Shown: positions 3,775-40,311, counted from the first letter of the stretch. The stretch: 64,000 nt of DNA from Parcubacteria group bacterium (GCA_041661275.1 JBAZUU010000004.1:71480-135479), one strand, 5' to 3'. Notes: generated by a model not told the origin, from the letters alone. Translations and numbers: made by a program.

Positions 3775-3795
3775 TTGTTTGAAGATTTTAATTTG

Positions 3796-3869
3796 TGGGC
3801 GTATCTGGACTCGAACCAGAGACCTCGTCATTATCAGTGACGCGCTCTAACCAACTGAGCTATACGCCC
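3796..3869 (-). tRNA. tRNA-Ile (anticodon GAT)
   Basis: rc reads gggcgta/tagctcagttggttagagc/gcgtca-ctgataa-tgacg/aggtc/tctggttcgagtccaga/tacgccc. Cloverleaf is complete. No CCA is encoded. Confidence 0.85.
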
Positions 3870-3874
3870 GAATG

Positions 3875-3947
3875 TGGACTGTGCCGGACTCGAACCGGCC
3901 GCCTCCTGCGTGCAAAGCAGGCGCTCTACCAGATGAGCTAACAGCCC
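3875..3947 (-). tRNA. tRNA-Ala (anticodon TGC) with G3:U70
   Basis: rc reads gggctgt ta gctcatctggtagagc g cctgc tttgcac gcagg aggcg gccggttcgagtccggc acagtcc a. The G3:U70 Ala identity pair is present. Confidence 0.85.
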
Positions 3948-6334: not shown

Positions 6335-6793
6335 ATGGCTATACGTATAGGAACAAATTTACCCAAAGGAACAGTGGCCGATGGCAAATCTTTAGGTTTT
6401 GATCCAAAGCGCAGTAAATTTATACAGGGACTTCTAAAAGATAAAGACGCAAGAGGAGCATTGGATAAACCTCAAGAAAGAAAACTGGTTTATGATGCTT
6501 TTAAAAGGCAGATGGGCAAAACTCCCAGAAATATAACCAACAGAGATGTGCGGGCTGTATTAGGAGCTTTTGGAACAGGAGAAATTGACCTGAAGGAAAG
6601 GCAGGCATTAGGAAAGGCGCTTCTTGGCAATGGATCATTTGTAAAGAAATATGATACTATTTCCAAAGAAAAGAAAGATTTTCTTTTAGGAAAAAGCAAC
6701 CCTGTAGTCGATCCTCGCAATGGAAGCTTGTCGACGACTAAACCCGGAAGTTCTTCAGGGAAAAGCGTCACTAGACATTCAGGTTTATTCTAA
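6335..6793 (+). CDS. Hypothetical protein (152 aa, basic, no recognised domain) occupying the position where rplJ is normally found
   Basis: Clean ORF preceded by a terminator and a TGCTATAAT -10 element. No similarity recognised by eye. Confidence 0.4.
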   Translation: MAIRIGTNLPKGTVADGKSLGFDPKRSKFIQGLLKDKDARGALDKPQERKLVYDAFKRQMGKTPRNITNRDVRAVLGAFGTGEIDLKERQALGKALLGNGSFVKKYDTISKEKKDFLLGKSNPVVDPRNGSLSTTKPGSSSGKSVTRHSGLF

Positions 6794-6886
6794 ATTGTAA
6801 AAGCAAAAAAGCGTTAAGAGCGCTTTTTCTATTGACTACCGGCAATACTTTTGATAGGATAATAAGGTGTTTAAAGGATAAATCAC

Positions 6887-11721: not shown

Positions 11722-13197
11722 ATGGCCAAATATACACCAGTCATTGGAATGGAAGTTCATGTGGAGTTGAAAACTGCTTCCAAGATGTTTTGTGATTCTA
11801 AAAATGGCTTGGGATTGGAAAGGGAACCGAACGTGAACATTTGTCCTGTTTGTACTGGCCAGCCAGGAACATTGCCAGTGCCTAATGCTGAAGCGATAAA
11901 ATTCGTTCAGATGGCCGGGCTGGCTTTGAATTGCGAACTCAATCTCAGTACTAAATTTGATAGAAAAAATTATTTTTATCCAGACCTTCCGAAAGGTTAT
12001 CAGATATCCCAATACGACCAACCACTTTGCGGAAAGGGAAGTCTGAAAATAAACGGGAAAGAAATTGGAATAACCAGGATCCATCTGGAAGAAGATACGG
12101 GAAAGCTTATTCATCCCAAAGGTGTGGATTATACCTTGGTAGATTTTAATCGGGCTGGCGTGCCGCTTATGGAGCTGGTAACTGAACCGGATATTGAATC
12201 GGGGGAAGAAGCCAGGATTTTTTGTCAAAAATTACAACAAATATGTCGATACTTAGGTATTTCTGATGCTGATATGGAAAAAGGAATGATGAGATGCGAA
12301 GCCAACATCTCGGTCTATAGAAAGGGCGAAGATAAACTCTCTGGAACGAAAGTGGAAGTGAAAAACATCAACTCTTTCAAGTTTGTGGAAAAGGCTATTG
12401 CTTATGAAATAGAAAGACAGATCGAAGTTCTGGAATCGGGGAAAAAAGTGGTTCAGGAAACACGCGGCTATGATTCTAATAGGAGCGCGACAGTATCACA
12501 AAGGACAAAAGAATCCGCCCATGACTACCGCTATTTCCCAGAGCCGGACATTCCGCCGCTAAAATTCACTAAGGATTATTTTGATGATTTGAAAAAACAT
12601 CTTCCGGAATTGCCGGAGGCAAAAATAATCCGCATAAAAGAGGAATATAAATTACCCGAAGCTGATGTGGAGATAATTGTTTCTGATAAAGACCTGGCTG
12701 ATTATTTTGAAGATGTAGTCAGTGAACTCAAAGAAAAGATAAGCTGCAAAGAATTCGAGGTTGATGAGAAAAAAGCAATAAAACTGGCGGCTAACTATAT
12801 TATCACTGAACTGCGAAAACACCTGACCGAACATAATCATGGTATAGCCGACATAGAAATCACTCCGGAAAATTATGCGGAACTCATTTGTATTGTGGCC
12901 AGTGGAAAAATAAATTCCAGCGCGGCGCAGACAGTTCTCGCTGAAATGTACAAAACCGGTGGCGATCCGTCACAGATAATAGAGTCAAAAAATTTGGCGC
13001 AGGTGAGTGATGAGGAAGAGCTGGAAAAAATAGTGGAAAGAATAATTTCTGATAATCAGCAGTCCGCGGACGATTATAAGGCGGGAAAAGAAAACGCGTT
13101 GAAATTTTTGATGGGACAGGTAATGAAGGAAACGAAAGGGAAGGCTAACCCGCAGGTTGTCGGAGAAATTTTGAAAAATAAATTGAGTATTAAATAA
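11722..13197 (+). CDS. gatB: Asp/Glu-tRNA(Asn/Gln) amidotransferase subunit B
   Basis: MAKYTPVIGMEVHVELKT..., the ICPVCTGQPGTLPVPN segment and a C-terminal GatB/YqeY domain. Confidence 0.9.
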   Translation: MAKYTPVIGMEVHVELKTASKMFCDSKNGLGLEREPNVNICPVCTGQPGTLPVPNAEAIKFVQMAGLALNCELNLSTKFDRKNYFYPDLPKGYQISQYDQPLCGKGSLKINGKEIGITRIHLEEDTGKLIHPKGVDYTLVDFNRAGVPLMELVTEPDIESGEEARIFCQKLQQICRYLGISDADMEKGMMRCEANISVYRKGEDKLSGTKVEVKNINSFKFVEKAIAYEIERQIEVLESGKKVVQETRGYDSNRSATVSQRTKESAHDYRYFPEPDIPPLKFTKDYFDDLKKHLPELPEAKIIRIKEEYKLPEADVEIIVSDKDLADYFEDVVSELKEKISCKEFEVDEKKAIKLAANYIITELRKHLTEHNHGIADIEITPENYAELICIVASGKINSSAAQTVLAEMYKTGGDPSQIIESKNLAQVSDEEELEKIVERIISDNQQSADDYKAGKENALKFLMGQVMKETKGKANPQVVGEILKNKLSIK

Positions 13198-13255
13198 AAA
13201 GAGGGGGTTCGCCAACGAGCGGACGTTTTGTTAACCTAAACGGAGGGGATGCGTA

Positions 13256-13444
13256 ATGACGGTTTGTCAGAAAAGAGGGGAAGGGACAGGGAGCGAGGGT
13301 GACTGCTTATGTATCAAGTGTGATAGTCACCTTGGTCCAATCCTGTGTGACAAGGGGAGTTGCGGGAAGTGCAGTGTTCACATCATAACCCATGATGAAT
13401 GCGTCATGGCAAGGAGCTCCTGCATTCCCAAGGATCAATACTAG
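13256..13444 (+). CDS. Small Cys-rich protein (62 aa, 11 Cys) in a GC-rich island
   Basis: Strong SD ggagggg 7 nt upstream. Cysteine pattern C-x13-CLC-x2-C-x8-C-x4-C-x2-C. Local GC is clearly above the flanks. Confidence 0.35.
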   Translation: MTVCQKRGEGTGSEGDCLCIKCDSHLGPILCDKGSCGKCSVHIITHDECVMARSSCIPKDQY

Positions 13445-13656
13445 GCGATGTCGTCAAAAAAGTCCCGGGCCAAGCCTCGGGACTAAAATTTATACAGTTG
13501 ACGAGTTTTCTATAGAGTGCTATGATGGTTAAAATATGAAAAGCTACAGGAAGCGAAAGAAATATCCACTAGCGATTAAAACAATTTTTATAGTTTTCCG
13601 ATAAAACCCCGAGAGGGGATTTTTTTTTCGTCCTTTTACAAAAAAAGGGAGGTTTT

Positions 13657-13869
13657 ATGAGAAGAAAGCATATAAGTAATGTCATTGAAAATGGTCACAG
13701 TACACGTTGCCTGATTTGCGGAAAAATAAAGCCGGCAATCATAGTTGAGGTTAGCCTGGAAGATGGAAAAGTGATAAATCTTTGCAATCTGGACGCGTGC
13801 AAAATTTGTTTTTGGAAAAGCTGTTTTTTGCGAAGTCAATTTTGTATCGGCCAGGGTATCAGTGATTAA
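13657..13869 (+). CDS. Small zinc-ribbon-like protein (70 aa)
   Basis: SD aagggagg upstream. Motifs CLICGK ... CNLDACKIC. Confidence 0.35.
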   Translation: MRRKHISNVIENGHSTRCLICGKIKPAIIVEVSLEDGKVINLCNLDACKICFWKSCFLRSQFCIGQGISD

Positions 13870-13917: not shown

Positions 13918-14925
13918 TTATTTTTTCAAAAATTTATTTATTTCCGATTCTGTCTTTTTATACTCGTCAATCCATTTTATACGCGTATCTTTTCTGAACC
14001 ACGTCATCTGCCGTTTGGCATAGTCTTTTTCAGCTCGGAGTATTTTTTGAAATAGTTCCTCCTTGGTTGCGATCTCACCTCTGAGATACTTAGGAATCAA
14101 AAAGTATCCAAGACCAAAGCTTTCTATTTTTTTCCAGGACAGTTTTTCTTTGGAATGTAAATTTTCCACTTCCCTTATCATTCCTTTCGCGAATCTTTTT
14201 CGAAGACGTTTTTCAATGTTTTGGTGGAGTTTTTCTTTGGGGAGATTGATGCCGATCTGGAGAAAGTTATAATTACGTGGTTTTAATTTAGAACCCTCTC
14301 CTGTCGCGAAGACGCGACATCCTCTCCCGAGGGGAGAGGAGGAATTTCTTCTTCCACCCTCTCCCTTCGGGAGAGGGTCATTCGACGAAGTCGAATGGGG
14401 AGAGGGAACCTTACCTAACGTCTTACAAATTTCTATGGCTCTTATTAACCGTACTTTGTTTTTGGCGTCAATACTTTTGGCTCGCTGGGGATCTAGTTTT
14501 TTTAGCATTGTGAATAATTTTTCCGCCGAATAATTACGTAAATAATTACGTAATTTCCAATCAGGTTTTACTTCCGGGTAGATTACATTATCAACAATGG
14601 CTTTTATCCAAAAGCCAGTGCCTCCACAGATAATGGGCAATTTCCCACGTTTCAGGATATCCTTAATAATCTTTTCGGCATCTTTTTTAAATTTAGCGGC
14701 GTTGTAATTTGTTCGCGGACTGACGATATCAATCATATAATGTTTAGCTAGCTTCTGTTCAGCTTTAGTAATCTTACCTGTTCCAATATCCAGTCCGCGA
14801 TAGATTTGTCTTGAGTCAGCGGAAATAATTTCACCGTTGAATTTTTTGGCAAGTCGAATTGCCACATCCGATTTTCCGGAAGATGTGGAGCCGAGGATGA
14901 CGATTATCTTATTATTTCCTTCCAT
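13918..14925 (-). CDS. miaA: tRNA dimethylallyltransferase MiaA carrying in-frame palindromic insertions
   Basis: IIVILGSTSSGKSDVAIRLAKKFNGEIISADSRQIY P-loop. ~38 aa (PSPHSTSSNDPLPKGEGGRRNSSSPLGRGCRVFATGEG) derive from the palindromic repeat at 14294-14406. Confidence 0.85.
   Translation of the reverse strand: MEGNNKIIVILGSTSSGKSDVAIRLAKKFNGEIISADSRQIYRGLDIGTGKITKAEQKLAKHYMIDIVSPRTNYNAAKFKKDAEKIIKDILKRGKLPIICGGTGFWIKAIVDNVIYPEVKPDWKLRNYLRNYSAEKLFTMLKKLDPQRAKSIDAKNKVRLIRAIEICKTLGKVPSPHSTSSNDPLPKGEGGRRNSSSPLGRGCRVFATGEGSKLKPRNYNFLQIGINLPKEKLHQNIEKRLRKRFAKGMIREVENLHSKEKLSWKKIESFGLGYFLIPKYLRGEIATKEELFQKILRAEKDYAKRQMTWFRKDTRIKWIDEYKKTESEINKFLKK
14294..14406. repeat. Family-B palindromic element (two tandem CCCTCTCC...GGGAGAGG hairpins) inside the miaA CDS
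   Basis: ccctctcctgtcgcgaagacgcgacatcctctcccgaggggagagg + ccaccctctcccttcgggagagggtcattcgacgaagtcgaatggggagaggg. Related copies at 24565-24625 and 54688-54739. Confidence 0.6.
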
Positions 14926-16159
14926 ATCTTATTAACTCTCTTAAGACTTTTTCTCTCCTTTTCTTTTCCGGCAAATCGACCGTTTCTTTCATCTTCCACG
15001 CGGCAGTATCGGGGCGGGGAGAATATTTATTGATATATGCTTCATTGTAGCTGACAGTTTTGAAAACTTTTATTGACTCGGAGAAATCCTTTTTGGCTTC
15101 ACCCGGGAAGCCGACGATTATGTCAGTAGTAAATTCGGCTTCTGGAATTATTTTTTTTATCTTTTTAATGAGATTCAGATAATACTTTTGCGTGTATGGT
15201 CGGTTCATGGCCTTGAGAATCTTGTCGCTTCCAGCCTGGACAGGCAAATGGATCTCTCGGGAAATATTTTTGTTTTTGGCAATAACTTTTATCAGTTCGT
15301 TAGAAAAATCTTTGGGGTGAGAGGTTAAAAACTTGAAGCGAATTTGAGGGTTTGATTTGGCAAGGTAATCCAAGAGTTTCGGAAAGTCTACAGTGACAGA
15401 ATTTTTAATTTTTAATTTTAAATTTTTAATCAATTTTAAATTTCCTAATTTTGAATTTTTAAACTCATAGTTATAACTATTAACGTTCTGTCCGAGAAGA
15501 GTTATTTCTTTGCAGTCATTTTTTGTCAGCGATTTTATTTCTTTGATAATATCTTCTACGGGTCTCGAAATCTCTCTACCTCTGGCGTAGGGGACGACGC
15601 AATAGGAGCAGAAGTTGTTACAGCCGGTCATTATCGGCACGTACACTTTATTGTTGTTAATGTATTTTGGAATAATATCCAAATAAGAACCGTCATTCTG
15701 AGCGGAATGACCCCGCCCTTGGCGGGGGAATGTAGCCGAAGAATCTGCCTTTTGGGTTTTCTGGTTATATTTTTTAGTAGATCCTTCGACTACGTTCCGA
15801 TAAGAATCGGAACTTCGCTCAGGATGACGGACTAAGAGAGGTTTTAATTTTTCCGGAAAATTATTTATATTACAGAATAAATCAACCTTATCTTCTAATC
15901 TTCTTTGCACGTCTTTTCTGTCGGCAAGGCAGCCGGTGAGGATGATAGTAATTTTTGGGTTTGATTTTCGTAGATTATGCACAAGTCCATAAACCCTATT
16001 TTCCGCCGACTGACGCACGCCGCAAGTATTGAAAATCACCAAGTTGGCCTGGTTTATATCTTTGGTTGGTTTAATTCTATGCGTTTCTAGAAACCCAGCA
16101 ATTCGCTCGGAATCGCTTTCATTCATTTGACAGCCGAAAGTTTTGATGTAATATTTCAT
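14912..16159 (-). CDS. miaB: tRNA-i6A37 methylthiotransferase MiaB carrying an in-frame MITE insertion
   Basis: MKYYIKTFGCQMNESDSERIAG MTTase N-terminus and radical SAM GCNNFCSYC. A 47-codon insert (15690-15830) is the family-A repeat. Confidence 0.85.
   Translation of the reverse strand: MKYYIKTFGCQMNESDSERIAGFLETHRIKPTKDINQANLVIFNTCGVRQSAENRVYGLVHNLRKSNPKITIILTGCLADRKDVQRRLEDKVDLFCNINNFPEKLKPLLVRHPERSSDSYRNVVEGSTKKYNQKTQKADSSATFPRQGRGHSAQNDGSYLDIIPKYINNNKVYVPIMTGCNNFCSYCVVPYARGREISRPVEDIIKEIKSLTKNDCKEITLLGQNVNSYNYEFKNSKLGNLKLIKNLKLKIKNSVTVDFPKLLDYLAKSNPQIRFKFLTSHPKDFSNELIKVIAKNKNISREIHLPVQAGSDKILKAMNRPYTQKYYLNLIKKIKKIIPEAEFTTDIIVGFPGEAKKDFSESIKVFKTVSYNEAYINKYSPRPDTAAWKMKETVDLPEKKRREKVLRELIRYGRK
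15690..15830. repeat. Family-A MITE-like nested-hairpin repeat, copy 1 (141 bp, inside miaB CDS, in frame)
   Basis: ccgtcattctgagcggaatga...gaagaatctgcc...agatccttcgactacgttcc...cgctcaggatgacgg. Both the outer and the inner inverted repeats are present. Confidence 0.7.
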
Positions 16160-16224
16160 AGAAGTTCTTGTGGGTAAAGTGGTATCCATTAGGATACTAA
16201 AATATTAACGAATTATCAAGGAGG

Positions 16225-16431
16225 ATGGCCATGGAACGAGGTGAAGAAATCACTCCCAAAGAGAGAGAAATTTGGGAAAGGAGAGGCGTATATTACTTCG
16301 TTTTCCAAACAAGCGACAGGGGTCTCTATATGGAAGGCCCTAATGGATCATCTCGGCCCATTGAGGATGGGATGGCTCACGGAAAAAACGGCTGGACAAG
16401 GCATTCACCGCCGGTTGGGATTTTGGACTGA
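16225..16431 (+). CDS. Hypothetical small protein (68 aa) in a GC-rich island
   Basis: Perfect SD aaggagg 6 nt before the ATG. No homology recognised. Confidence 0.25.
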   Translation: MAMERGEEITPKEREIWERRGVYYFVFQTSDRGLYMEGPNGSSRPIEDGMAHGKNGWTRHSPPVGILD

Positions 16432-16449: not shown

Positions 16450-16740
16450 ATGACGGTCAAAAGCATAAGAGAGATTTTATCAGAAGGAGGAACATTATTA
16501 CGAGTAGATATCGCAGGTCAAACGACCGCCGAATATGCTACGCATGCACGGCTGGATAGGTCTACTCTTTATCTCACATGTCCGACTCGCGGATTAGGGC
16601 TTAGCGATAATCTGGTTGATATCGCTTATGAGAAAAGGGTGCCTGCCGCAAAGGTTTGGGGTTTACGCTGGGTTTCTGTGCATGTAACAGCGTTTATCTT
16701 GAGGGAAGTTCAGCCAGACTCAGAATTATTTTTTAAGTAA
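16450..16740 (+). CDS. Hypothetical protein (96 aa) in a GC-rich island
   Basis: SD aaggag before the ATG. Followed by the terminator aaaagggctgcgaattgtgcagccct + T-run at ~16775-16808. Confidence 0.35.
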   Translation: MTVKSIREILSEGGTLLRVDIAGQTTAEYATHARLDRSTLYLTCPTRGLGLSDNLVDIAYEKRVPAAKVWGLRWVSVHVTAFILREVQPDSELFFK

Positions 16741-16814
16741 AATAAGTTCTTTGAGTTTTTAAAACAGATAATAAAAAGGGCTGCGAATTGTGCAGCCCTA
16801 GTATTTTTTCTAGG

Positions 16815-18623
16815 TTATTTTTTTTCGTCAATTTCTTTTCTAATTTTTTCCACAAATTCATCTACTTTCAAAACCTCTTGCTCTTTTTGTCCTCGCGTTC
16901 TCACGGCAACTGTGCCATCCTTTTCTTCCTTTTCTCCCACCACAATCATATACGGAATTTTTTGCTTTTCCGCTTCGCGGATGCGTTTGCCGAGAGATTC
17001 GTCATCTTTGTTTATTTCTGCGCGTATATTATTTTCCTTCAGTTCCGCCAGTATCTTTTCGCCATATTTATTAAACTTTTCGGAAACTGGAATGATCATC
17101 ACTTGCACTGGGGATAGCCAAAGCGGAAACGCGCCGGCGTAGTGTTCAATGAGAACACCAATAAATCTTTCAAAAGATCCAAATAGTGCTCGATGTAGCA
17201 TATAAGGTTTTTCTTTTTCTCCTTTCTCATTAATAAAGCTCATAGCAAATTGTTCGGGCATATTAAAGTCGAATTGCAGTGTTGAACATTGCCATTCCCG
17301 TCCGATTGCATCCTTTACCTTAAAATCTAATTTTGGCCCATAAAATACCGCGCCGCCCACATCTTTAGTTATGTTTAATTTCTTTTCTTTTGCAACTTCT
17401 TCTAAAACTTTTTCTGTGAATTTCCACCCATCTTCTGTTCCGGCATATTTTTCATTTTTAGGATCTCGAACTGAAAGATAAACATTAACATCATCTATCG
17501 CGAATCCAAAAGATTTATAAATGAACAAAATAAAATCTACCACTTTTTCAAGTTCCTGTTTGACCTGGTCAACCCGGCAAATTATATGAGCATCATCTTG
17601 GGTAAAGCCTCGCACCCGAGTTAATCCAGAGAGTTCGCCTTTTTTCTCATAGCGATACACTGTGCCACATTCTGCCCAGCGAAAGGGGAGCTCCCGATAA
17701 GAGTGCAGGTTAGAATTAAAAATTTGAATGTGGAAGGGGCAGTTCATTGGTTTTAGGAGAAACTGTTCTGGCGCTTTAGCTTTTTTCCCTTCCTGGCTAT
17801 CTCTCAAAGTCTGACCAACTTCCATTGGAGGATACATGCTTTCGTTATAGAAACCCCAATGGCCAGAAGTTTCCCAAAGAGTCCGGTTTCCGATATGTGG
17901 AGAGCGAACAAGCTCATAACCATTTTTTAAATGCTCGGCATACCAAAAATCTTCAATAACTCGCCAAAGAATAGCGCCCTTTGGATGCCAAAGGGGAAGG
18001 CCAAGTCCAACTACTTCATCAATATGAAATAAATCCAGTTCTTTTCCTAATTTCCTATGATCTCTTTTTTCCGCTTCTTCCAGCATCTTTAGATACGCGT
18101 CCAGTTCTTTTTTATTCTCAAAAGCGACGCCATAGATCCGCTGGAGCATTTTGTTTTTTTCATCACCTCGCCAATAGGCGCCAGAAATCTTGGTGAGTTT
18201 AAAACTTTCTGGATTAATTTTTCCAGTAGATTCCACATGCGGGCCGGCGCAAAGGTCAACGAGATGGCCAGATTTATAAACGGAAACTTTTTTCTCGCCA
18301 GCTTTTTCCAGATCAGAAATAAGTTCAACTTTATAAACTTGGTCAGCTTCTTCGAATTTTTTTATGGCTTCGGCAATGGAAATTTCCGCCCGTTCAAATG
18401 GATGATCGGCTTTGATGATAGCTTTCATCTTTTCTTCCAAAATTTCCAAATCTTCCGGAATCAAAGTTCTTGGCAGATCAAAGTCATAATAGAATCCGTT
18501 TTCAATGGCCGGACCAATGGCCAGTTTCGCTTCGGGAAACATTTCCAAAACCGCCGCGGCCAAGACGTGGGACGCGCTGTGTCGAAGAGTTTCTAAATTG
18601 TTGGGTGTGGTTTTTCTTGACAT
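16815..18623 (-). CDS. thrS: Threonyl-tRNA synthetase
   Basis: LRHSASHVLAAAV editing/second additional domain, class II motifs (FRWAECGTVYRYE..., GFTQDDAHIIC) and a C-terminal anticodon-binding domain. Confidence 0.9.
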   Translation of the reverse strand: MSRKTTPNNLETLRHSASHVLAAAVLEMFPEAKLAIGPAIENGFYYDFDLPRTLIPEDLEILEEKMKAIIKADHPFERAEISIAEAIKKFEEADQVYKVELISDLEKAGEKKVSVYKSGHLVDLCAGPHVESTGKINPESFKLTKISGAYWRGDEKNKMLQRIYGVAFENKKELDAYLKMLEEAEKRDHRKLGKELDLFHIDEVVGLGLPLWHPKGAILWRVIEDFWYAEHLKNGYELVRSPHIGNRTLWETSGHWGFYNESMYPPMEVGQTLRDSQEGKKAKAPEQFLLKPMNCPFHIQIFNSNLHSYRELPFRWAECGTVYRYEKKGELSGLTRVRGFTQDDAHIICRVDQVKQELEKVVDFILFIYKSFGFAIDDVNVYLSVRDPKNEKYAGTEDGWKFTEKVLEEVAKEKKLNITKDVGGAVFYGPKLDFKVKDAIGREWQCSTLQFDFNMPEQFAMSFINEKGEKEKPYMLHRALFGSFERFIGVLIEHYAGAFPLWLSPVQVMIIPVSEKFNKYGEKILAELKENNIRAEINKDDESLGKRIREAEKQKIPYMIVVGEKEEKDGTVAVRTRGQKEQEVLKVDEFVEKIRKEIDEKK

Positions 18624-18734
18624 ATATGCTTTTTTGTTAAATAATTTTAATTAGTTCCAAATATTAAGTTTTTTAAGTGTTTGCGAATCTATTAATGATC
18701 CTAATCTGTAAAGACTATACGAGGAGGAAGGCTT

Positions 18735-19034
18735 ATGTGCGGAGGAGCTGATATTGGTTACGATCTTGATGAGATCCAAGATAGTCAACTGTTTATTCTG
18801 GTCAAATGTCCTAAGTCTGGATGCAAGGGGTTAATTTCTATGACTCCTCGAGAGGTGCGCGTGGATTTTCCGGACTGTCCTGTTGGGGGCAATGTTCAGC
18901 TCAGATTTGATCAGGGGGAAAACATCTGTCCGGAGTGTGGAGATGCAGGTCTGCAGATAGATACGAAAATAATTAACTTTTCATTCTCCGATCAAGACTA
19001 TCGATCTCGCGCTGAACATTACGAATACCCATAA
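18735..19034 (+). CDS. Small zinc-ribbon-like hypothetical protein (99 aa) in a GC-rich island
   Basis: SD gaggagg upstream. Motifs CPKSGC ... CPVGG ... CPECGDAG. Confidence 0.4.
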   Translation: MCGGADIGYDLDEIQDSQLFILVKCPKSGCKGLISMTPREVRVDFPDCPVGGNVQLRFDQGENICPECGDAGLQIDTKIINFSFSDQDYRSRAEHYEYP

Positions 19035-19042
19035 ACGGCAAA

Positions 19043-19111
19043 ACCCCGTCTCAAAAATTTGTCGAGAATAGCAATTCTCAAAAAACAAATTCTTGGGACG
19101 GGGCTCTTTTT
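19043..19111 (+). terminator. Long GC-rich hairpin terminator
   Basis: aaaccccgtctc...(internal gagaatagcaattctc hairpin)...gggacggggctc followed by tttttattt. Confidence 0.5.
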
Positions 19112-19352
19112 ATTTACGTAAATAATTACGTAATTAATTACTTACCTCGTGGTTCCACCCAAATTGCCCGACATATGTCGAACTACTCTTTAAGTTATAT
19201 CGTTAACTTACACCGGAGGTTCGGCGGATGGTTAGGCCGCGTCAACGCCTCATTTAGTTGTCACTATATAACATACATAAAAACTGGAAAAAAGTCAATT
19301 TTCAAAAACAAAATAGTGTGATAAGATAAAGAAAATTACTAACAAAAAACAT

Positions 19353-27903: not shown

Positions 27904-28033
27904 CCGTCATTCCGAGCGAGCACGAATGAAATGAAGTGCGAGTCGAGGAATCTGCCAAATGGGTTTACTAGTAATATTATTAAGTAGATCTCTCGACTCG
28001 CTCTCCCTATGGTCGAGCTCGCTCGAGATGACG
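27904..28033. repeat. Family-A MITE-like repeat, copy 2 (diverged)
   Basis: ccgtcattccgagcgagcacgaatgaaatgaagtgcgagtcgaggaatctgccaaat...agatctctcgactcgctc...gctcgagatgacg. Confidence 0.6.
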
Positions 28034-32184: not shown

Positions 32185-35110
32185 GAAGATTGATCCTAAA
32201 ATGAATCTTCCAAAGATGGAGGAAGACGTTTTGAAATTTTGGGAGGAAAATAAAATATTTGAAAAGTCTTTAGAGAATAGAAAGGATGCGCCTTTGTATT
32301 CTTTTTATGATGGACCACCATTTGCCACTGGCCTTCCGCATCACGGGCATCTTTTAGCTTCAACCTCAAAAGATGTTGTTCCTCGCTTTTGGACAATGAA
32401 GGGATATAATGTTCCGCGAAGATGGGGATGGGATACCCACGGTTTGCCAATCGAAAATATTGTCGAGAAAAAATTAGGTTATAAGGGCAAGAAAGAAATC
32501 GAGGAAAATATTTCTAAATTTAATGAAGAAGCAAAAAACACAGTTCTTCAATTTGCCGATGAGTGGAAAAAAACTATCCGAAGAATTGGACGTTGGGTGG
32601 ATTTTGATAATTCCTATAAAACCATGGATTCAACTTTTATGGAATCAGTTTGGTGGGGGTTTAAGGAGTTGGATAAAAAAGGACTGGTTTATAAGGATTC
32701 AAGAATTTCGTTATACTGTCCGCATTGTGCTACACCACTTTCTAATTTCGAGATTGCTATGGACAATTCCTACAAGATGGATAAAGATGTTTCGATTTAT
32801 GTGAAAATTGGCTTAAAAGATAATCCAGGAACTTACTTTTTAGTCTGGACAACAACTCCCTGGACACTGTTAGCTAATGTTGCACTCGCTGTTGGAGAAA
32901 AAATAAAATATGTAGAAGTAAGATATGACAAAGAAAAATATATTATAGCCAAAGACCTTATAGATAAAGTAATTCCGGAAGATGATTATGAACTTATCAG
33001 CGAGTTTGATGGAAAGGATCTGATTGGAAAGGAATATGATCCGATTTTTCCTCATAATATCGAAAATGGGTACCGTGTGGTGGCGGGAGATTTTGTGAAT
33101 ATTGAAGATGGAACAGGGATAGTTCATTTAGCGCCAGCTTATGGGGAAGATGACTTTCAAGCGAGAAAGAAAAATAACTTGCCTCTAATTGAAAATGTTG
33201 ACGATGAAGGGCAATTCACGGAAGGGCAGTGGAAAGGAATGAATGTTTGGGATGCTAATTTTAAGGTTGTTGGGTATATCCATGAAAAAGGATTGTTATT
33301 CAAAAAAGAAAACATCACTCACTCTTATCCACATTGCTATCGATGTGACGCGAAATTAATTTATAAGGCTCAACCAGCCTGGTTTATAAAAGTATCAGAG
33401 TTTAAAGATGAGTTGATAAGCGAAAACGAAAATATTAACTGGCATCCAGAACATTTGAAACATGGAAGATTTTTGAACGGCTTGGAAAACGCGCCAGATT
33501 GGAATGTTTCACGCTCCCGATATTGGGGAAACCCGATGCCTATTTGGGAATGTGAAAAATGTAAAGAAATAGAAATTGTTGGATCATACGATGAGCTGGA
33601 AAAACTTTCTGGAAAAAAGCTCGATGATTATCACAGGCCATTTATTGACGAGATAACTTTTGACTGTGAAAAATGCAAAGGCAAGATGAAAAGAGTTTTA
33701 GATGTGTTTGATTGTTGGGTAGAATCAGGATCGATGCCTTTTGCAGAATTTCATTATCCTTTCGAAAACAAAGAGATATTTGAAAAAAGATTTCCGGCAC
33801 AATTTATATCCGAATATATCGCCCAGACGCGAGGCTGGTTTTATACTCTTCACGTTTTGTCGGTCGGACTTTTTGAAAAACCCAGTTTTATAAACGCAGT
33901 AACGACCGGGACGATTGCTGGAAGCGACGGAAAAAAAATGTCAAAGTCGCAAGGAAATTTTACTGATCCTAATGTCCTTCTTGATAAATATGGAGCAGAT
34001 TCTTTCAGATTTTATTTGATGCAATCTTCTCTTATGGAAGGGGAGAATCTAAATTTTCTCGATAAAGATCTGGAAGCTATCTTTAAAGGAATGTTTCGCA
34101 TGATGTGGAATTCATATTCGTTTTTTGTGCTTTATGCCAACGTCGACAAATGGAATCCTGATCCTAAAACCGGGTTTTGGGATGAATCCCAAAACCCGGT
34201 TTTAGGAAGCCGAAATATTTTAGACCGCTGGATAGTTTCTGAATTACAAACGCTCATTAAAGATGTTAATGAAAATATGGAAAATTATGAGTTGACCAGA
34301 GCAGCGAGGCTGTTTCCAAAATTTATCGACAATCTTTCCAATTGGTATATCAGGCGTTCCAGAAGGAGATTTTGGAAGTCGGAGTCCGACTCCGATAAAA
34401 AAGAAGCCTATGAAACTTTGCATTATGTTTTGGTGACGCTTTCAAAACTGATGGCGCCATTCACGCCGTTCATCGCGGAGGAGATATTTCGGAATTTATC
34501 AGACGCAGGGAACAAAAATTTTTGTTCCGTACACCTCCAGGATTTTCCGGTGGCCGATGAAAAATTGATTGATGAAAAATTAAATGAAGAGATGGCAAAA
34601 GTGAGAGACATTATCACACAAGGCTTGCAACTTCGCGCGATGGCGAAAATAAAAGTCAGACAGCCATTGGAAAAATTTTTGATTGCCAATTTGGAGCTTT
34701 CTCATAAAGAACTTTTGGAAATCATCCGTGAAGAAATGAATGTGAAGAAGGTTGAGATGGTGGAAAAAGTCAAAGAAGGGGAAAGCTGGATAATCGGGGA
34801 GATTGGGGAAATTAGCGTTGGTTTAAATATTGAGATCACCGAAGAACTTAGGCTGGAAGGTGTGGCGCGGGAGATAATCCGGCATATTCAGGAGATGCGA
34901 AAAGAGGCCGGGTATGATGTTGACAACCGGATAAAAGTATGCTATGCTGGTTGGTCAGTGGTTTTCGAGAAATTTGGCGATCTGATCGCCAAGGAAACTC
35001 TGGCTGATTCTTTACAAAATAATAAACCGGATCAATCCGATCTGGAAAAGGAATTTAATATTGAGGGGGAAAAAGTTCTTATTTATATAAAACGAACCAA
35101 AAATACATAA
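32177..35110 (+). CDS. ileS: Isoleucyl-tRNA synthetase
   Basis: PPFATGLPHHGHL (HIGH), KMSKSQGN (KMSKS), CP1 editing domain and zinc-finger C-terminus. The ATG overlaps the stop of the GT4 gene (ATGTATAA). Confidence 0.9.
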   Translation: MYKKIDPKMNLPKMEEDVLKFWEENKIFEKSLENRKDAPLYSFYDGPPFATGLPHHGHLLASTSKDVVPRFWTMKGYNVPRRWGWDTHGLPIENIVEKKLGYKGKKEIEENISKFNEEAKNTVLQFADEWKKTIRRIGRWVDFDNSYKTMDSTFMESVWWGFKELDKKGLVYKDSRISLYCPHCATPLSNFEIAMDNSYKMDKDVSIYVKIGLKDNPGTYFLVWTTTPWTLLANVALAVGEKIKYVEVRYDKEKYIIAKDLIDKVIPEDDYELISEFDGKDLIGKEYDPIFPHNIENGYRVVAGDFVNIEDGTGIVHLAPAYGEDDFQARKKNNLPLIENVDDEGQFTEGQWKGMNVWDANFKVVGYIHEKGLLFKKENITHSYPHCYRCDAKLIYKAQPAWFIKVSEFKDELISENENINWHPEHLKHGRFLNGLENAPDWNVSRSRYWGNPMPIWECEKCKEIEIVGSYDELEKLSGKKLDDYHRPFIDEITFDCEKCKGKMKRVLDVFDCWVESGSMPFAEFHYPFENKEIFEKRFPAQFISEYIAQTRGWFYTLHVLSVGLFEKPSFINAVTTGTIAGSDGKKMSKSQGNFTDPNVLLDKYGADSFRFYLMQSSLMEGENLNFLDKDLEAIFKGMFRMMWNSYSFFVLYANVDKWNPDPKTGFWDESQNPVLGSRNILDRWIVSELQTLIKDVNENMENYELTRAARLFPKFIDNLSNWYIRRSRRRFWKSESDSDKKEAYETLHYVLVTLSKLMAPFTPFIAEEIFRNLSDAGNKNFCSVHLQDFPVADEKLIDEKLNEEMAKVRDIITQGLQLRAMAKIKVRQPLEKFLIANLELSHKELLEIIREEMNVKKVEMVEKVKEGESWIIGEIGEISVGLNIEITEELRLEGVAREIIRHIQEMRKEAGYDVDNRIKVCYAGWSVVFEKFGDLIAKETLADSLQNNKPDQSDLEKEFNIEGEKVLIYIKRTKNT

Positions 35111-35120
35111 CCCAACCTCT

Positions 35121-35309
35121 ATGTCCCGAAAGGAGCTATTTATGGCTAAGATACTGGATTTTCCGAAAAAGATGGCTTCCGCCAATTCTTCAGATGTGGA
35201 TAGGGAAGAAACAGGAAAGACTCCTGAGTCCAGCAAGGAGGTGACACCTATTGAAATTGACTGGGAGCATATCAAAAAGAGAATGTTTCTGGATGACATC
35301 GGCGCCTAA
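35121..35309 (+). CDS. Hypothetical small acidic protein (62 aa)
   Basis: ORF directly after ileS with a moderate SD. Confidence 0.3.
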   Translation: MSRKELFMAKILDFPKKMASANSSDVDREETGKTPESSKEVTPIEIDWEHIKKRMFLDDIGA

Positions 35310-35336
35310 TTTTTCCGAATGCGAAAGGGGAGCGTC

Positions 35337-35474
35337 ATGAGACAATTTATTTCTGTGTGTGAATGGATTGACACTGCTCCGGAAGAGGTGTTTGTCGCGT
35401 TTCTTCTGGTTGCGACGTTGGTTATTATAGTCATCAACGATCTCCTCCGAAAAAAGGGGAGATCGGAAGTCTGA
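35337..35474 (+). CDS. Hypothetical small single-TM peptide (45 aa); a paralogous unit follows at ~35613
   Basis: SD aaggggag before the ATG. The upstream context atgcgaaaggggagcg is duplicated ahead of a second hydrophobic peptide ORF (MGLLLLGVWITGLGLAFGL...). Confidence 0.3.
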   Translation: MRQFISVCEWIDTAPEEVFVAFLLVATLVIIVINDLLRKKGRSEV

Positions 35475-36075
35475 CAGGGAGGGAGGGGAATGACAGTACT
35501 ATTAATCGCACTCGGTGTTTTTGTCTGGTTTCTCGTCGTTTCCGTGACGCGCCAAACCTTTAAGAAAAACAAAGAGACGGTGAACGTTTTTCCCGTATGC
35601 GAAAGGGGGCGATATGGGATTATTGCTTCTGGGCGTTTGGATAACAGGGTTGGGTCTTGCGTTTGGCCTTTGCCGATGCATGGCTCTCGTATCAATCCGT
35701 CTGGTTGAGGCCGAGGAACGGAGGCGGGGCGTGATCATTTCTTCTTCAGAAGAGCCTGCCGACTAAAGATTTATTTTTTGGCAGAGTATCTTCAAAAGTC
35801 TCTCGTGGAGAAATTTTCTGCGGGAGCTTTTTTTATTTCCCCTTGACAAAAATATAGGGCGGTTTTGGAAGAAATAAAAAATAGAAAAAAATGCGTGTTC
35901 AAGCTTGATTTTTTCTTTTAGACGTGCTATAATGGATATAGAAAGTTAAAGAAGTTGCTCGCGGGAGCCATAACCCTGTAAAGTTCCGCAACGGAACCAC
36001 GGGGCAAGAAACGGGTGTAGGCCCGTTTTAAGTATTTTCTGGGGGAACAATAACCCAGAGTTAATTATTGCCAAA

Positions 36076-36948
36076 ATGAAAAAAAATAATAGGAAAATAA
36101 AAATACTCAAACTATCAGTGGCAGTTGTCATAATGTTTTCATATTTGTCATATCCTGCCCTGGCTAAAGAAATAAATATTGCTAATGTTTTAGAGTTGGT
36201 GAATGAAGCTCGACAAAAAAATGGCGTAGCCACCTTGGATGAAAATCAAAAATTGGACAAGATCGCGGCGGACAAATTGGAAGACATGGTGAAGAATAAT
36301 TATTTTGCCCACACGTCTCCCAAGGGAGTCAATCCGTGGTTCTGGTATGAAAAAAATAGTTATGACTATAAGTACGCGGGAGAAAATCTGGCTATCAATT
36401 TTATGCGCGCCGAAGATCAGCAGGACGCCTGGATGAAAAGTCCGACTCACCGAAAAAATATTTTGAATCCCAACTATCAGGAAATTGGAGTTGCGGTCGG
36501 AGCGGGGGAGGTCAATGGACAGTTGGGAATAATTGCCGTTCAGGAATTTGGAACCTTGGCCAGCGCCGCCGGAGACGTTTCAAAAGAAGGGGAAAACTTT
36601 TCCGCGCACAAGGATGAGGGATTGGTCAAGGACGGCGTGAAGATAACCCCGCAAGTTTTGTCGGTGAAAGACTTTACCGAAGAGAAATTGAAAAATGAAA
36701 TTCCAGGAACCAAAAGCAATTCCAGTTGGACGAGAAATATATTGGACAAGTTCAACGCCAATAGTCCTGCTATGTATAACTACATGAGCCTTCTCGCCGT
36801 CTTCTTAATGCTTGCTTCAATCGTTCTGGCCTCAGCTTCATTTCTCACAGTAGCCGCGCATGAGATTATGATTTGCGATGAGTTGCGTCGAAAAGTGTAT
36901 GCCGACCACGAAGTATTAATAAAACATGACCGGATTTTGATATCGTAG
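36076..36948 (+). CDS. CAP/SCP/PR-1-domain secreted protein with N-terminal signal/TM and C-terminal TM segment
   Basis: VNEARQKNGVATLDENQKLDKIAADKLEDMVKNNYFAHTSP...GENLAINF...WMKSPTHRKNILNPNYQEIGVAV matches PF00188. Confidence 0.75.
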   Translation: MKKNNRKIKILKLSVAVVIMFSYLSYPALAKEINIANVLELVNEARQKNGVATLDENQKLDKIAADKLEDMVKNNYFAHTSPKGVNPWFWYEKNSYDYKYAGENLAINFMRAEDQQDAWMKSPTHRKNILNPNYQEIGVAVGAGEVNGQLGIIAVQEFGTLASAAGDVSKEGENFSAHKDEGLVKDGVKITPQVLSVKDFTEEKLKNEIPGTKSNSSWTRNILDKFNANSPAMYNYMSLLAVFLMLASIVLASASFLTVAAHEIMICDELRRKVYADHEVLIKHDRILIS

Positions 36949-39404: not shown

Positions 39405-39515
39405 GAAAATAAAGTGGGAAGGGATAAAGGTCGAGGGTGTTAGTAACTGTTCAACATCTTTTCTTTGATATATACTTCTTTGCAGAGCTTTGTTAAAACA
39501 AAAAAACACAAAACT

Positions 39516-39851
39516 ATGCAAAGAAAAATGTATCCAAGCGATGTCACTCGCGAGCAATTTGAAAAAATCAGACCGATTCTCGATACGGCCTGCAAGAAAA
39601 CAAGGCCGAGAACCATCGACCAGTATGACGTGTTCTGCGCCCTGCTGTACCTGCTGAAATCCGGCTGCCAATGGCGAATGTTGCCATCGGATTTTCCCAA
39701 ATGGCGCACCGTCCATCATTACTTTTCTCTCTGGAGCCGGAAGGAAAACAAAAACACCCCCAGCGTATTGGAGGAGGTCTTAAAAAAAATTGGTCAGCGA
39801 CGAACGCTTGAGAAATGGGAGATTATGCAAAACGAGCTTGGGTATCGTTGA
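39516..39851 (+). CDS. IS5-family transposase OrfA (DUF4096 N-terminal domain)
   Basis: YDVFCALLYLLKSGCQWRMLPSDFPKWRTVHHYF is the hallmark of IS5/IS427 OrfA. Confidence 0.8.
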   Translation: MQRKMYPSDVTREQFEKIRPILDTACKKTRPRTIDQYDVFCALLYLLKSGCQWRMLPSDFPKWRTVHHYFSLWSRKENKNTPSVLEEVLKKIGQRRTLEKWEIMQNELGYR

Positions 39852-40311
39852 TGCCCAAAGCGTGAAAAATACTGAATCAGCGAGACAGAAAGGCTATGAC
39901 GCAGGCAAAAAAGTATCCGGTATTAAGCGGCATATTGTCGTGGACACCAATGGATTACCGCACGCAGTTACCATTACGACAGCTGATGTGACTGACAGAG
40001 ATGGAGCCATTAAGGCTTTTGAGACAAACAAAAAACACCTGTCGAAGGTGAAGAAAATACTGGCCGACGGCGGTTACACAGGCAAACCGTTTGCCGAAAA
40101 AGTGAAGAAGATTTTGAAAGCGGAAACAGAAATTGCTAAAAGAAATGAATTGCATACATTCAAAGTTATTCCGAAAAGATGGGTGGTGGAAAGAAGTTTC
40201 TCTTGGTTGGAAAAATGTCGGAGATTATGGAAAAATTGCGAAAGAAAACTTAATTCAAGTTTACAAATGATGGTTCTGTGTTTCGTGAGAGTTTTGTTGA
40301 AAAGATGTTGA
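39790..40311 (+). CDS. IS5-family transposase OrfB (DDE domain), expressed by programmed frameshift from OrfA
   Basis: GIVDAQSVKNTESA...GIKRHIVVDTNGLPHAV...ADGGYTG...VVERSFSWLEKCRRL is the DDE_Tnp_1 signature. Confidence 0.8.
   Translation: MVSDERLRNGRLCKTSLGIVDAQSVKNTESARQKGYDAGKKVSGIKRHIVVDTNGLPHAVTITTADVTDRDGAIKAFETNKKHLSKVKKILADGGYTGKPFAEKVKKILKAETEIAKRNELHTFKVIPKRWVVERSFSWLEKCRRLWKNCERKLNSSLQMMVLCFVRVLLKRC

Follow-up and report, generated by a model that had tools for sequence, protein, structure and literature searches.

Small genes behind Shine-Dalgarno sites between gatB, the mia genes and thrS in an uncultured Patescibacteria genome

Five small ORFs among housekeeping genes

The 64,000-nucleotide (nt) stretch analysed here (JBAZUU010000004.1:71480-135479, assembly GCA_041661275.1), called the window below, comes from an uncultured member of the Patescibacteria (candidate phyla radiation, CPR) that carries the NCBI label 'Parcubacteria group bacterium'. 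The genome has a mean GC content of 40.5% and is Moranbacteria-like; its nearest genome in GTDB is a metagenome-assembled genome of Candidatus Moraniibacteriota. Between gatB and a SIMPL-domain gene the window has five small open reading frames (ORFs), O1 to O5, on the strand opposite to miaA, miaB and thrS. The order thrS-miaB-miaA facing gatB is kept across Moranbacteria-like relatives. We describe the small ORFs, their homologues in related genomes, and the T-box leader of thrS, to which O5 lies antisense.

11722-13197, + strand: gatB
13256-13444, + strand: O1, 62 amino acids (aa), pattern CxCxxC-x8-C-x4-CxxC-x9-C-x6-C, 9 Cys and 3 His
13657-13869, + strand: O2, 70 aa, motifs ENGHS..CxxCG ... 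CxxxxCxxCF
13918-14925, - strand: miaA
14912-16189, - strand: miaB
16231-16431, + strand: O3, 66 aa, without Cys, antisense between thrS and miaB
16450-16740, + strand: O4, 96 aa, in the same frame as O3, with GGAG upstream
16815-18623, - strand: thrS
18735-19034, + strand: O5, 99 aa, zinc-ribbon-like, with C25, C30, C65 and C68 as candidate metal ligands
from 19353 onward, + strand: SIMPL-domain gene

An earlier note, made from the sequence alone, had singled out four segments as GC-rich islands that each hold a small ORF behind a near-consensus Shine-Dalgarno (SD) site (islands 1 to 4, with O1, O2, O3 and O4, and O5). Both the ORFs and the SD strings sit where that note placed them. The higher GC content applies less evenly. 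Only island 1 is a true outlier, with 51.4% GC against the genome mean (0.4% of same-length windows are equally high); islands 3 and 4 are modest (44.7-44.9%, within the top 8-14% of windows), and island 2, at 37.7%, is under the genome mean. Three ORFs (O1, O2 and O5) are Cys-rich, as had been noticed, but O1 has 9 Cys rather than the reported 11 in 62 aa. O2 has 7, O5 has 6, O4 has a single one and O3 has 0. The zinc-ribbon-like motif is also present, O5 carrying CPKSGC...CPECG. A fifth island, which the note had not listed, is located downstream of ileS (35110-35770; 47.7% GC, top 0.75% of windows). It encodes 3-4 small ORFs (50-72 aa), each behind a strong SD site (AAAGGAG, AAGGGGAG, GGGAGGGAGGGGA and GAAAGGGGG); a hydrophobic helix is present in two or three.

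ORF length alone is weak evidence in these segments (dinucleotide shuffles, P = 0.30, 0.07, 0.06 and 0.03), and for an SD-preceded ORF of the observed length the shuffles gave P = 0.033, 0.011, 0.006 and 0.002. The genome is nearly SD-less. Any SD core within 20 nt upstream was found for 6 of the 56 long genes of the window, most of whose start codons are in A/T-rich leaders; because so few have one, an SD site ahead of a small ORF is informative. The long genes with a strong SD include a DDE transposase and an orphan gene. TGA serves as the stop codon in only 2 of 39 long ORFs.

Homologues in the same slots of related genomes

Sequence searches of Pfam, NCBIfam, PHROGs, PADLOC and PDB gave no significant match for the ORFs, and their database clusters are all singletons. 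The earlier note had named a lack of protein-level conservation in relatives as evidence against its proposal of small proteins. Such a lack seemed real in a first set of 160 loci, obtained by scans anchored on thrS in GTDB genomes and JGI metagenomes, where tblastn near thrS found no homologue of any ORF. Closer relatives, fetched with MiaA as the anchor (MiaA identity 65-75%), overturned it. Two loci, L001 and L002, are identical to the window or one base away from it. A homologue in the same slot and orientation is present for O1 (locus L165), O2 and O3 (both in L173) and O5 (L163), and none was found for O4.

Protein identity across the four homologue pairs is 33-42%. Frames are intact in both genomes, all length differences are whole codons, and the SD site is kept in all four homologues. 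Cysteines are retained at 8/9 positions in O1, 5/7 in O2 and 4/5 in O5, as compared with 24-37% identity at other positions, and tblastx scores are highest in the ORF frame. The ratio of nonsynonymous to synonymous substitution rates (dN/dS), which had been expected to lie below 1 for coding sequence, is 0.18 for O3, 0.26 for O5 and 0.70, near neutral, for O1; for O2, dN is 0.61 and dS is saturated. The comparison gene gatB has a dN/dS of 0.04 (0.045 in the genome pair used for O1), and at the protein level the small genes change 4-11 times faster than their housekeeping neighbours. They are slightly GC-richer than the host locus in every genome. Judged by an intact conserved ORF and by constraint in its frame, we regard O1, O2, O3 and O5 as protein-coding. 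It is probable, in our assessment, that the islands are lineage-restricted, fast-evolving small protein-coding genes, most of them annotation-poor, of which three probably bind zinc.

Were this so, each small gene would be translated from a strong SD site, which nearly all housekeeping genes of the genome do without. O2, O3-O4 and O5 would each form a transcription unit of its own behind a promoter-like site, and all units would end at hairpins. The earlier note had suggested small metal-binding proteins. The retained Cys of the coding ORFs fit this proposal, and O1, O2 and O5 would most likely fold around metal ions held by those residues: O5 as one Zn(Cys)4 ribbon, O1 with about two Cys4 sites, and O2 with a CxxC...CxxxxCxxC site. 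The three proteins could then act as small cytoplasmic binding or regulatory modules. The signals surrounding O1 to O4 are given here.

13207-13224, + strand: weak hairpin with a T-rich tail just after the gatB stop codon, conserved in L165
13242-13248, + strand: SD of O1, GGAGGGG (GAGGGGGG for the homologue in L165)
13462-13486, + strand: terminator-like hairpin after O1, outer stem and position kept in L165
13498-13526, + strand: promoter-like site TTGACG-17-TATGAT of the O2 unit, with the same core in L173 (TTGACGAG...TATRATGGT)
13527-13630, + strand: O2 leader, ~100 nt, A-rich and conserved, between the promoter-like site and O2
13607-13618 (hairpin) and 13620-13628 (T9), + strand: intrinsic terminator closing the O2 leader, upstream of the O2 SD
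13646-13652, + strand: SD of O2, AGGGAGG (GGAGGGAGGGGAG in L173)
16218-16224, + strand: SD of O3, AAGGAGG (AAGGAG in L173)
16777-16799, both strands: bidirectional terminator hairpin common to the O3-O4 unit and the convergent thrS

The homologue of O1 (60 aa; L165 9307-9489, minus strand) also lies downstream of gatB behind its own SD site, and it is uncalled there too. Identity outside the Cys positions is 24%. The tblastx score is 57.9 bits in the sense frame versus 36.3 bits in antisense, and the conserved block LCDKG.CG.C has synonymous third-position changes relative to L165. O1 has no signal peptide-like N-terminus. The hairpin that follows gatB is conserved and weak, and therefore O1 is probably transcribed through partial read-through from gatB. 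Other small Cys-rich ORFs occupy the gatB slot on the same strand in L169 (3695-3877, 60 aa, 8 Cys), L032 (15775-16035, 86 aa) and L003 (14465-14674, 69 aa). The one in L169 has the CxCxxC and CxxC-x9-C spacing of O1. We did not accept these three as O1 homologues, as statistical support is absent.

O2 has an 82-aa homologue (L173 5597-5845, minus strand) with 28 of 70 residues identical (40%), in which both CxxCG and CxxxxCxxC are kept, and tblastx matches occur in the ORF frame only. L173 also keeps the unit of promoter-like site, leader and terminator ahead of O2, and the hairpin there has a compensatory change. No Rfam match was found for the leader, which could be an attenuator or a small RNA.

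The O3 homologue (93 aa; L173 1630-1911, minus strand) shares 27 of 65 residues with O3 and stands alone in L173, without O4. The coding status of O4 is unproven.

The thrS leader and its antisense gene

O5 is located between the start of thrS and the terminator of a T-box leader on the opposite strand. The elements of this layout are the following.

18617-18645, + strand: promoter-like site TTGACA-17-AATAAT (11/12 match; a prediction), overlapping the thrS start codon on the other strand
18721-18727, + strand: SD of O5, GAGGAGG (GGAAGGAG in L163)
19044-19112, both strands: long hairpin with U/T tracts on both strands, terminator of O5 (+) and terminator arm of the thrS T-box (-)
19113-19298, - strand: Thr T-box leader of thrS, with a promoter-like site at 19298-19270
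19232-19230, - strand: T-box specifier ACC, followed by A, in the terminal loop of a short Stem I
19160-19151, - strand: T-box core GGGTGGAACC, also written GGGUGGAACC

We assign the thrS leader to the T-box class on sequence grounds: the specifier fits the synthetase, the core is present, and antiterminator and terminator are mutually exclusive, the 3' strand of the antiterminator being part of the terminator stem. The short Stem I consists of 9 pairs, with the specifier held in a 9-nt terminal loop. ACC-A is invariant in 7 genomes, and 4 of the 9 Stem I pairs covary (both sides change and pairing is kept). Like members of the Rfam T-box family (RF00230), the leader has a specifier of ACC plus purine, the core GGGUGGAACC and competition of antiterminator with terminator, all upstream of thrS. 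Unlike a typical T-box, it reaches only 20.7 bits where the gathering score is 93, with a match to model positions 149-216 (T-box core and antiterminator), and ~400 nt with an opposite gene separate the terminator from thrS. A review (PMC7583486) places mainly translational T-boxes of Actinobacteria in the ultrashort Stem I class, which includes actinobacterial ileS leaders. The thrS leader resembles these in its short Stem I without a distal platform and differs in that it joins such a stem to a strong intrinsic terminator. It may thus combine an ultrashort Stem I with transcriptional control, as an undescribed riboswitch variant common in Moranbacteria-like genomes.

The exhaustive HMMER search with O5 covered 1.84 billion representatives and yielded a single relative, P0008 (89 aa, E = 2.5e-9), whose contig is L163; the local layout there is the same as in the window. 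C25, C30, C65 and C68 of O5 are invariant in P0008. The two sequences gave 46 bits by tblastx in the sense frame and 30 bits in antisense, and their dN/dS of ~0.26 is read with dS near saturation. O5 was described in the earlier note as zinc-ribbon-like, and the two conserved Cys knuckles agree with this; matches to curated models and to solved structures are not significant. The best match of the O5 profile in PDB was to an HVO_2753-like protein, with a non-significant E-value of 1.6.

In L165, L167, L170 and L003 the T-box is 80-120 nt from the thrS start and no gene is inserted, whereas in the window and in L163 the terminator and thrS are separated by ~400 nt with an oppositely oriented gene of the O5 family. 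L175, a more distant relative, has at the same position and in the same orientation, antisense between T-box terminator and thrS start, a 78-aa ORF with CPRCG...CIKCG and a strong SD (6492-6728, minus relative to thrS at 6823). It was rejected as a member of the O5 family, with an hhalign probability of 9.8% and no detectable similarity. The antisense layout thus recurs in three diverged lineages (window, L163 and L175), and as the L175 protein is unrecognisably different, selection could act on the arrangement and not on the sequence. None of the papers searched describes a T-box leader with a gene set antisense within it.

Every thrS transcript that reads past the T-box has to cross the O5 gene in antisense, and from this geometry mutual interference would be expected. 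The O5 mRNA would be fully complementary to a ~400-nt stretch of the read-through thrS transcript, so that expression of O5 and T-box-induced expression of thrS would be expected to interfere with each other. An excludon or long-antisense arrangement is similar, as a coding mRNA is there fully complementary to the 5' untranslated region of an oppositely oriented neighbour; here the partner is a riboswitch-controlled leader, and the interplay is predicted from the layout. A further, rather doubtful, possibility is that the thrS leader carries a built-in antagonist, such that T-box read-through and expression of the small zinc-ribbon protein would be mutually exclusive. Transcriptional interference or the pairing of the two RNAs into a duplex would bring this about, and the O5 protein may in addition act back on the metabolism of threonine or tRNA.

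ThrRS looks mosaic in the window: its N-terminal ~200 aa are nearest to L165 (88% identity), whereas over the full length it is nearest to L003 (77%, versus 66% for L165). This pattern suggests that the catalytic part may have been recombined or replaced.

Alternative readings, known systems and genomic setting

Several findings weigh against treating the islands as small protein-coding genes with probable zinc sites. Codon usage is poor for all five ORFs (-0.28 to 0.10 per codon versus 0.29 in long genes), no better than for out-of-frame or spurious ORFs, and it is worst for O1. O1 is left uncalled by Prodigal-type callers and by PGAP, and is absent from every gene call; O5 is uncalled by PGAP, and the NCBI annotation thus lacks two of the five small ORFs. 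The dN/dS of O1 is close to neutral, and as dS is saturated or nearly so, all the dN/dS values are rough. Each family consists of two sequences only, and the exhaustive protein search covered O5 alone of the five ORFs. For O4 there is no homologue in the relatives or databases searched, and its single-sequence AlphaFold2 model is of low confidence (predicted local distance difference test, pLDDT, of 48). Like zinc ribbons (Pfam Zn_Ribbon_TF, TFIIB-type), O5 and P0008 carry a pair of Cys knuckles, spaced by 34-35 residues, and beta strands are predicted in the interval; however, O5 reaches 14.5 bits with Zn_Ribbon_TF against a cut-off of 29, no zinc-ribbon Pfam model matches at threshold, and the single-sequence AlphaFold2 model in which the strands are predicted has an unreliable pLDDT of 52.

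The segments might instead be structured non-coding RNAs or cis-regulatory leaders that are open in one frame by chance, as the earlier note had also considered. A genuine T-box adjoins island 4, O2 follows a conserved leader with a terminator, O1 goes uncalled and its codon usage is very poor, and the plus strand of the O1 region (13198-13495) has a fold z-score of -3.06, with 0 of 200 shuffles folding equally well. This z-score is unremarkable, since the whole-window scan gave a genome distribution with a mean of -0.89, a standard deviation of 1.83 and a 5th percentile of -4.4, in which the island windows are at the 20th-60th percentile; the true fold outliers of the window are palindromic repeats and the T-box terminator. 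The cmscan run that the note had proposed offers no known RNA family for any segment: Rfam 15 at gathering thresholds identified only two tRNAs in the window (3795-3947) and none in the four islands, and in E-value mode (E <= 10) there was no credible match inside them. Moreover, homologues keep their frames, SD sites and Cys codons, with whole-codon indels and synonymous changes, and tblastx is best in the ORF frame. Misread RNAs are therefore very improbable. It is unlikely, too, that the ORFs are chance or decaying frames in the scars of mobile-DNA insertions, functionless now, a suspicion that touches O4 and O1 in particular. It draws on the patchy distribution (one relative lineage per ORF), on protein change 4-11 times that of the neighbours, on the near-neutral O1 and the orphan O4, and on the atypical codon usage and raised GC in a window with an insertion sequence and dispersed repeats. 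Yet neutral decay at saturated dS would not keep frames of 60-99 codons in two lineages, nor 8 of 9 Cys while the other positions of O1 drop to 24% identity; SD sites and terminators are kept, and the islands lack flanking repeats or paralogues that would point to mobile cassettes.

The invariant Cys scaffold of O1 and its fast change elsewhere are typical of Cys-framework peptides, and O1, perhaps with O2, might be the precursor of a modified or secreted peptide, either toxin-like or a ribosomally synthesized and post-translationally modified peptide (RiPP); by the same token the compact two-gene unit O3-O4 might be a toxin-antitoxin pair. The earlier note had raised both RiPP-like precursors and toxin components. 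Neither has held up, and we consider such an assignment quite improbable: no maturase, transporter or partner gene is conserved with any of the ORFs, and no protease or exporter beside O1, its neighbours being gatB and miaA in every genome; gatB and miaA/miaB also occur in relatives that lack O1 or O2; Pfam, NCBIfam and PADLOC gave no match, the N-terminus is not signal peptide-like, and the O3 homologue of L173 occurs without O4. For O5, one may ask whether the locus is mainly regulatory, its transcript acting as a long, excludon-like antisense RNA on the thrS leader with the protein secondary. Over its whole length the O5 unit runs antisense to the region from T-box terminator to thrS start and shares the terminator hairpin, its layout recurs in L163, and L175 has a non-homologous zinc-ribbon ORF at the same place. 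The protein, on the other hand, is under constraint (dN/dS 0.26, four Cys invariant, SD kept), L165, L167, L170 and L003 run the T-box without any insert, and the O5 promoter is a consensus match only, so that we find a mainly regulatory role conceivable and rather unlikely.

Small protein-coding genes of this kind have known counterparts. Haloarchaea encode C(P)XCG zinc-finger micro-proteins, among them HVO_2753 of Haloferax volcanii and Brz of Halobacterium; some regulate neighbouring genes, and Brz is a small zinc-finger regulator whose gene is next to its target (PMC2253796, PMC10117724). The ORFs described here resemble the micro-proteins in being under 100 aa, in having pairs of CxxC/CPxCG knuckles, in their often intergenic position and in being missed by annotation. 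They differ from these archaeal proteins in their source, a CPR bacterium, and have no significant sequence similarity to them; the knuckles of O5 are one CPxxxC and one CPxCG, the 8-Cys pattern of O1 is a different one, and metal binding by either would be an extrapolation from the motifs. With ~60 aa, 9 Cys and 3 His, O1 is also reminiscent of bacterial metallothioneins (SmtA/BmtA) and of Cys-rich RiPP precursors (SCIFF), from which it differs in its Cys spacing, in the lack of any Pfam or NCBIfam match and in having no dedicated radical-SAM maturase.

The finding is real but of a mostly ordinary kind, namely families of small and probably zinc-binding proteins with a narrow distribution, largely overlooked by annotation. 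The annotation of uncultured bacteria misses small proteins systematically, as it missed O1 and O5 although their syntenic homologues keep the Cys, and synteny-anchored comparison of close relatives can recover such genes where database searches and codon statistics fail. Most worth attention are the recurrent antisense zinc-ribbon gene in the thrS T-box leader, a candidate for a new coupling of a riboswitch to a second gene, and the contrast of SD-led accessory genes with an SD-poor core, which raises a testable question on translation initiation in the CPR.

Three variable slots interrupt the conserved backbone gatB | miaA-miaB-thrS: 3' of gatB, between thrS and miaB, and between the T-box terminator and the thrS start. 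Each homologue was seen in one relative lineage only among those examined, and elsewhere the same slots carry an OTCase gene, GT2 and Fic genes, a 23S-rRNA-IVP gene, or other small Cys-rich ORFs. Repeat and paralogue searches found no shared flanks, flanking repeats or paralogy among the islands, and phage blastn and four IMG/VR scans gave no mobile-element lead. We read the small ORFs as accessory, fast-evolving genes in permissive junctions of a conserved backbone, whose patchiness could stem from repeated loss or from exchange by recombination.

Other features of the window were also observed. An insertion sequence at 39465-40311 encodes a DDE transposase (Pfam DDE_Tnp_1, E = 1e-31) in two overlapping frames, with an SD-like GGAGGAGG at their junction that fits programmed frameshifting. 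GC-rich palindromic repeat elements are in frame within miaA (14290-14410) and miaB (15690-15830); their RNA-fold z-scores, as low as -12, are the most extreme in the window, and their motif GTCATTCYGAGCG is also found at 27906, 29129, 47065 (reverse complement), 54385 and 58547. Two copies of a 25-nt AT-rich palindromic element (TAATTACGTAAATAATTACGTAATT) are present, one at 14531-14555 in miaA, where it encodes LRNYLRNY, and one at 19111-19147, within the T-box antiterminator loop. Finally, a GC-rich, hairpin-rich stretch at 35930-36050, which is 3' of a TATAAT-like site and just upstream of a gene at 36076, is a possible cis-regulatory RNA; near it, Rfam in E-value mode gave only a weak L10-leader match (21 bits).

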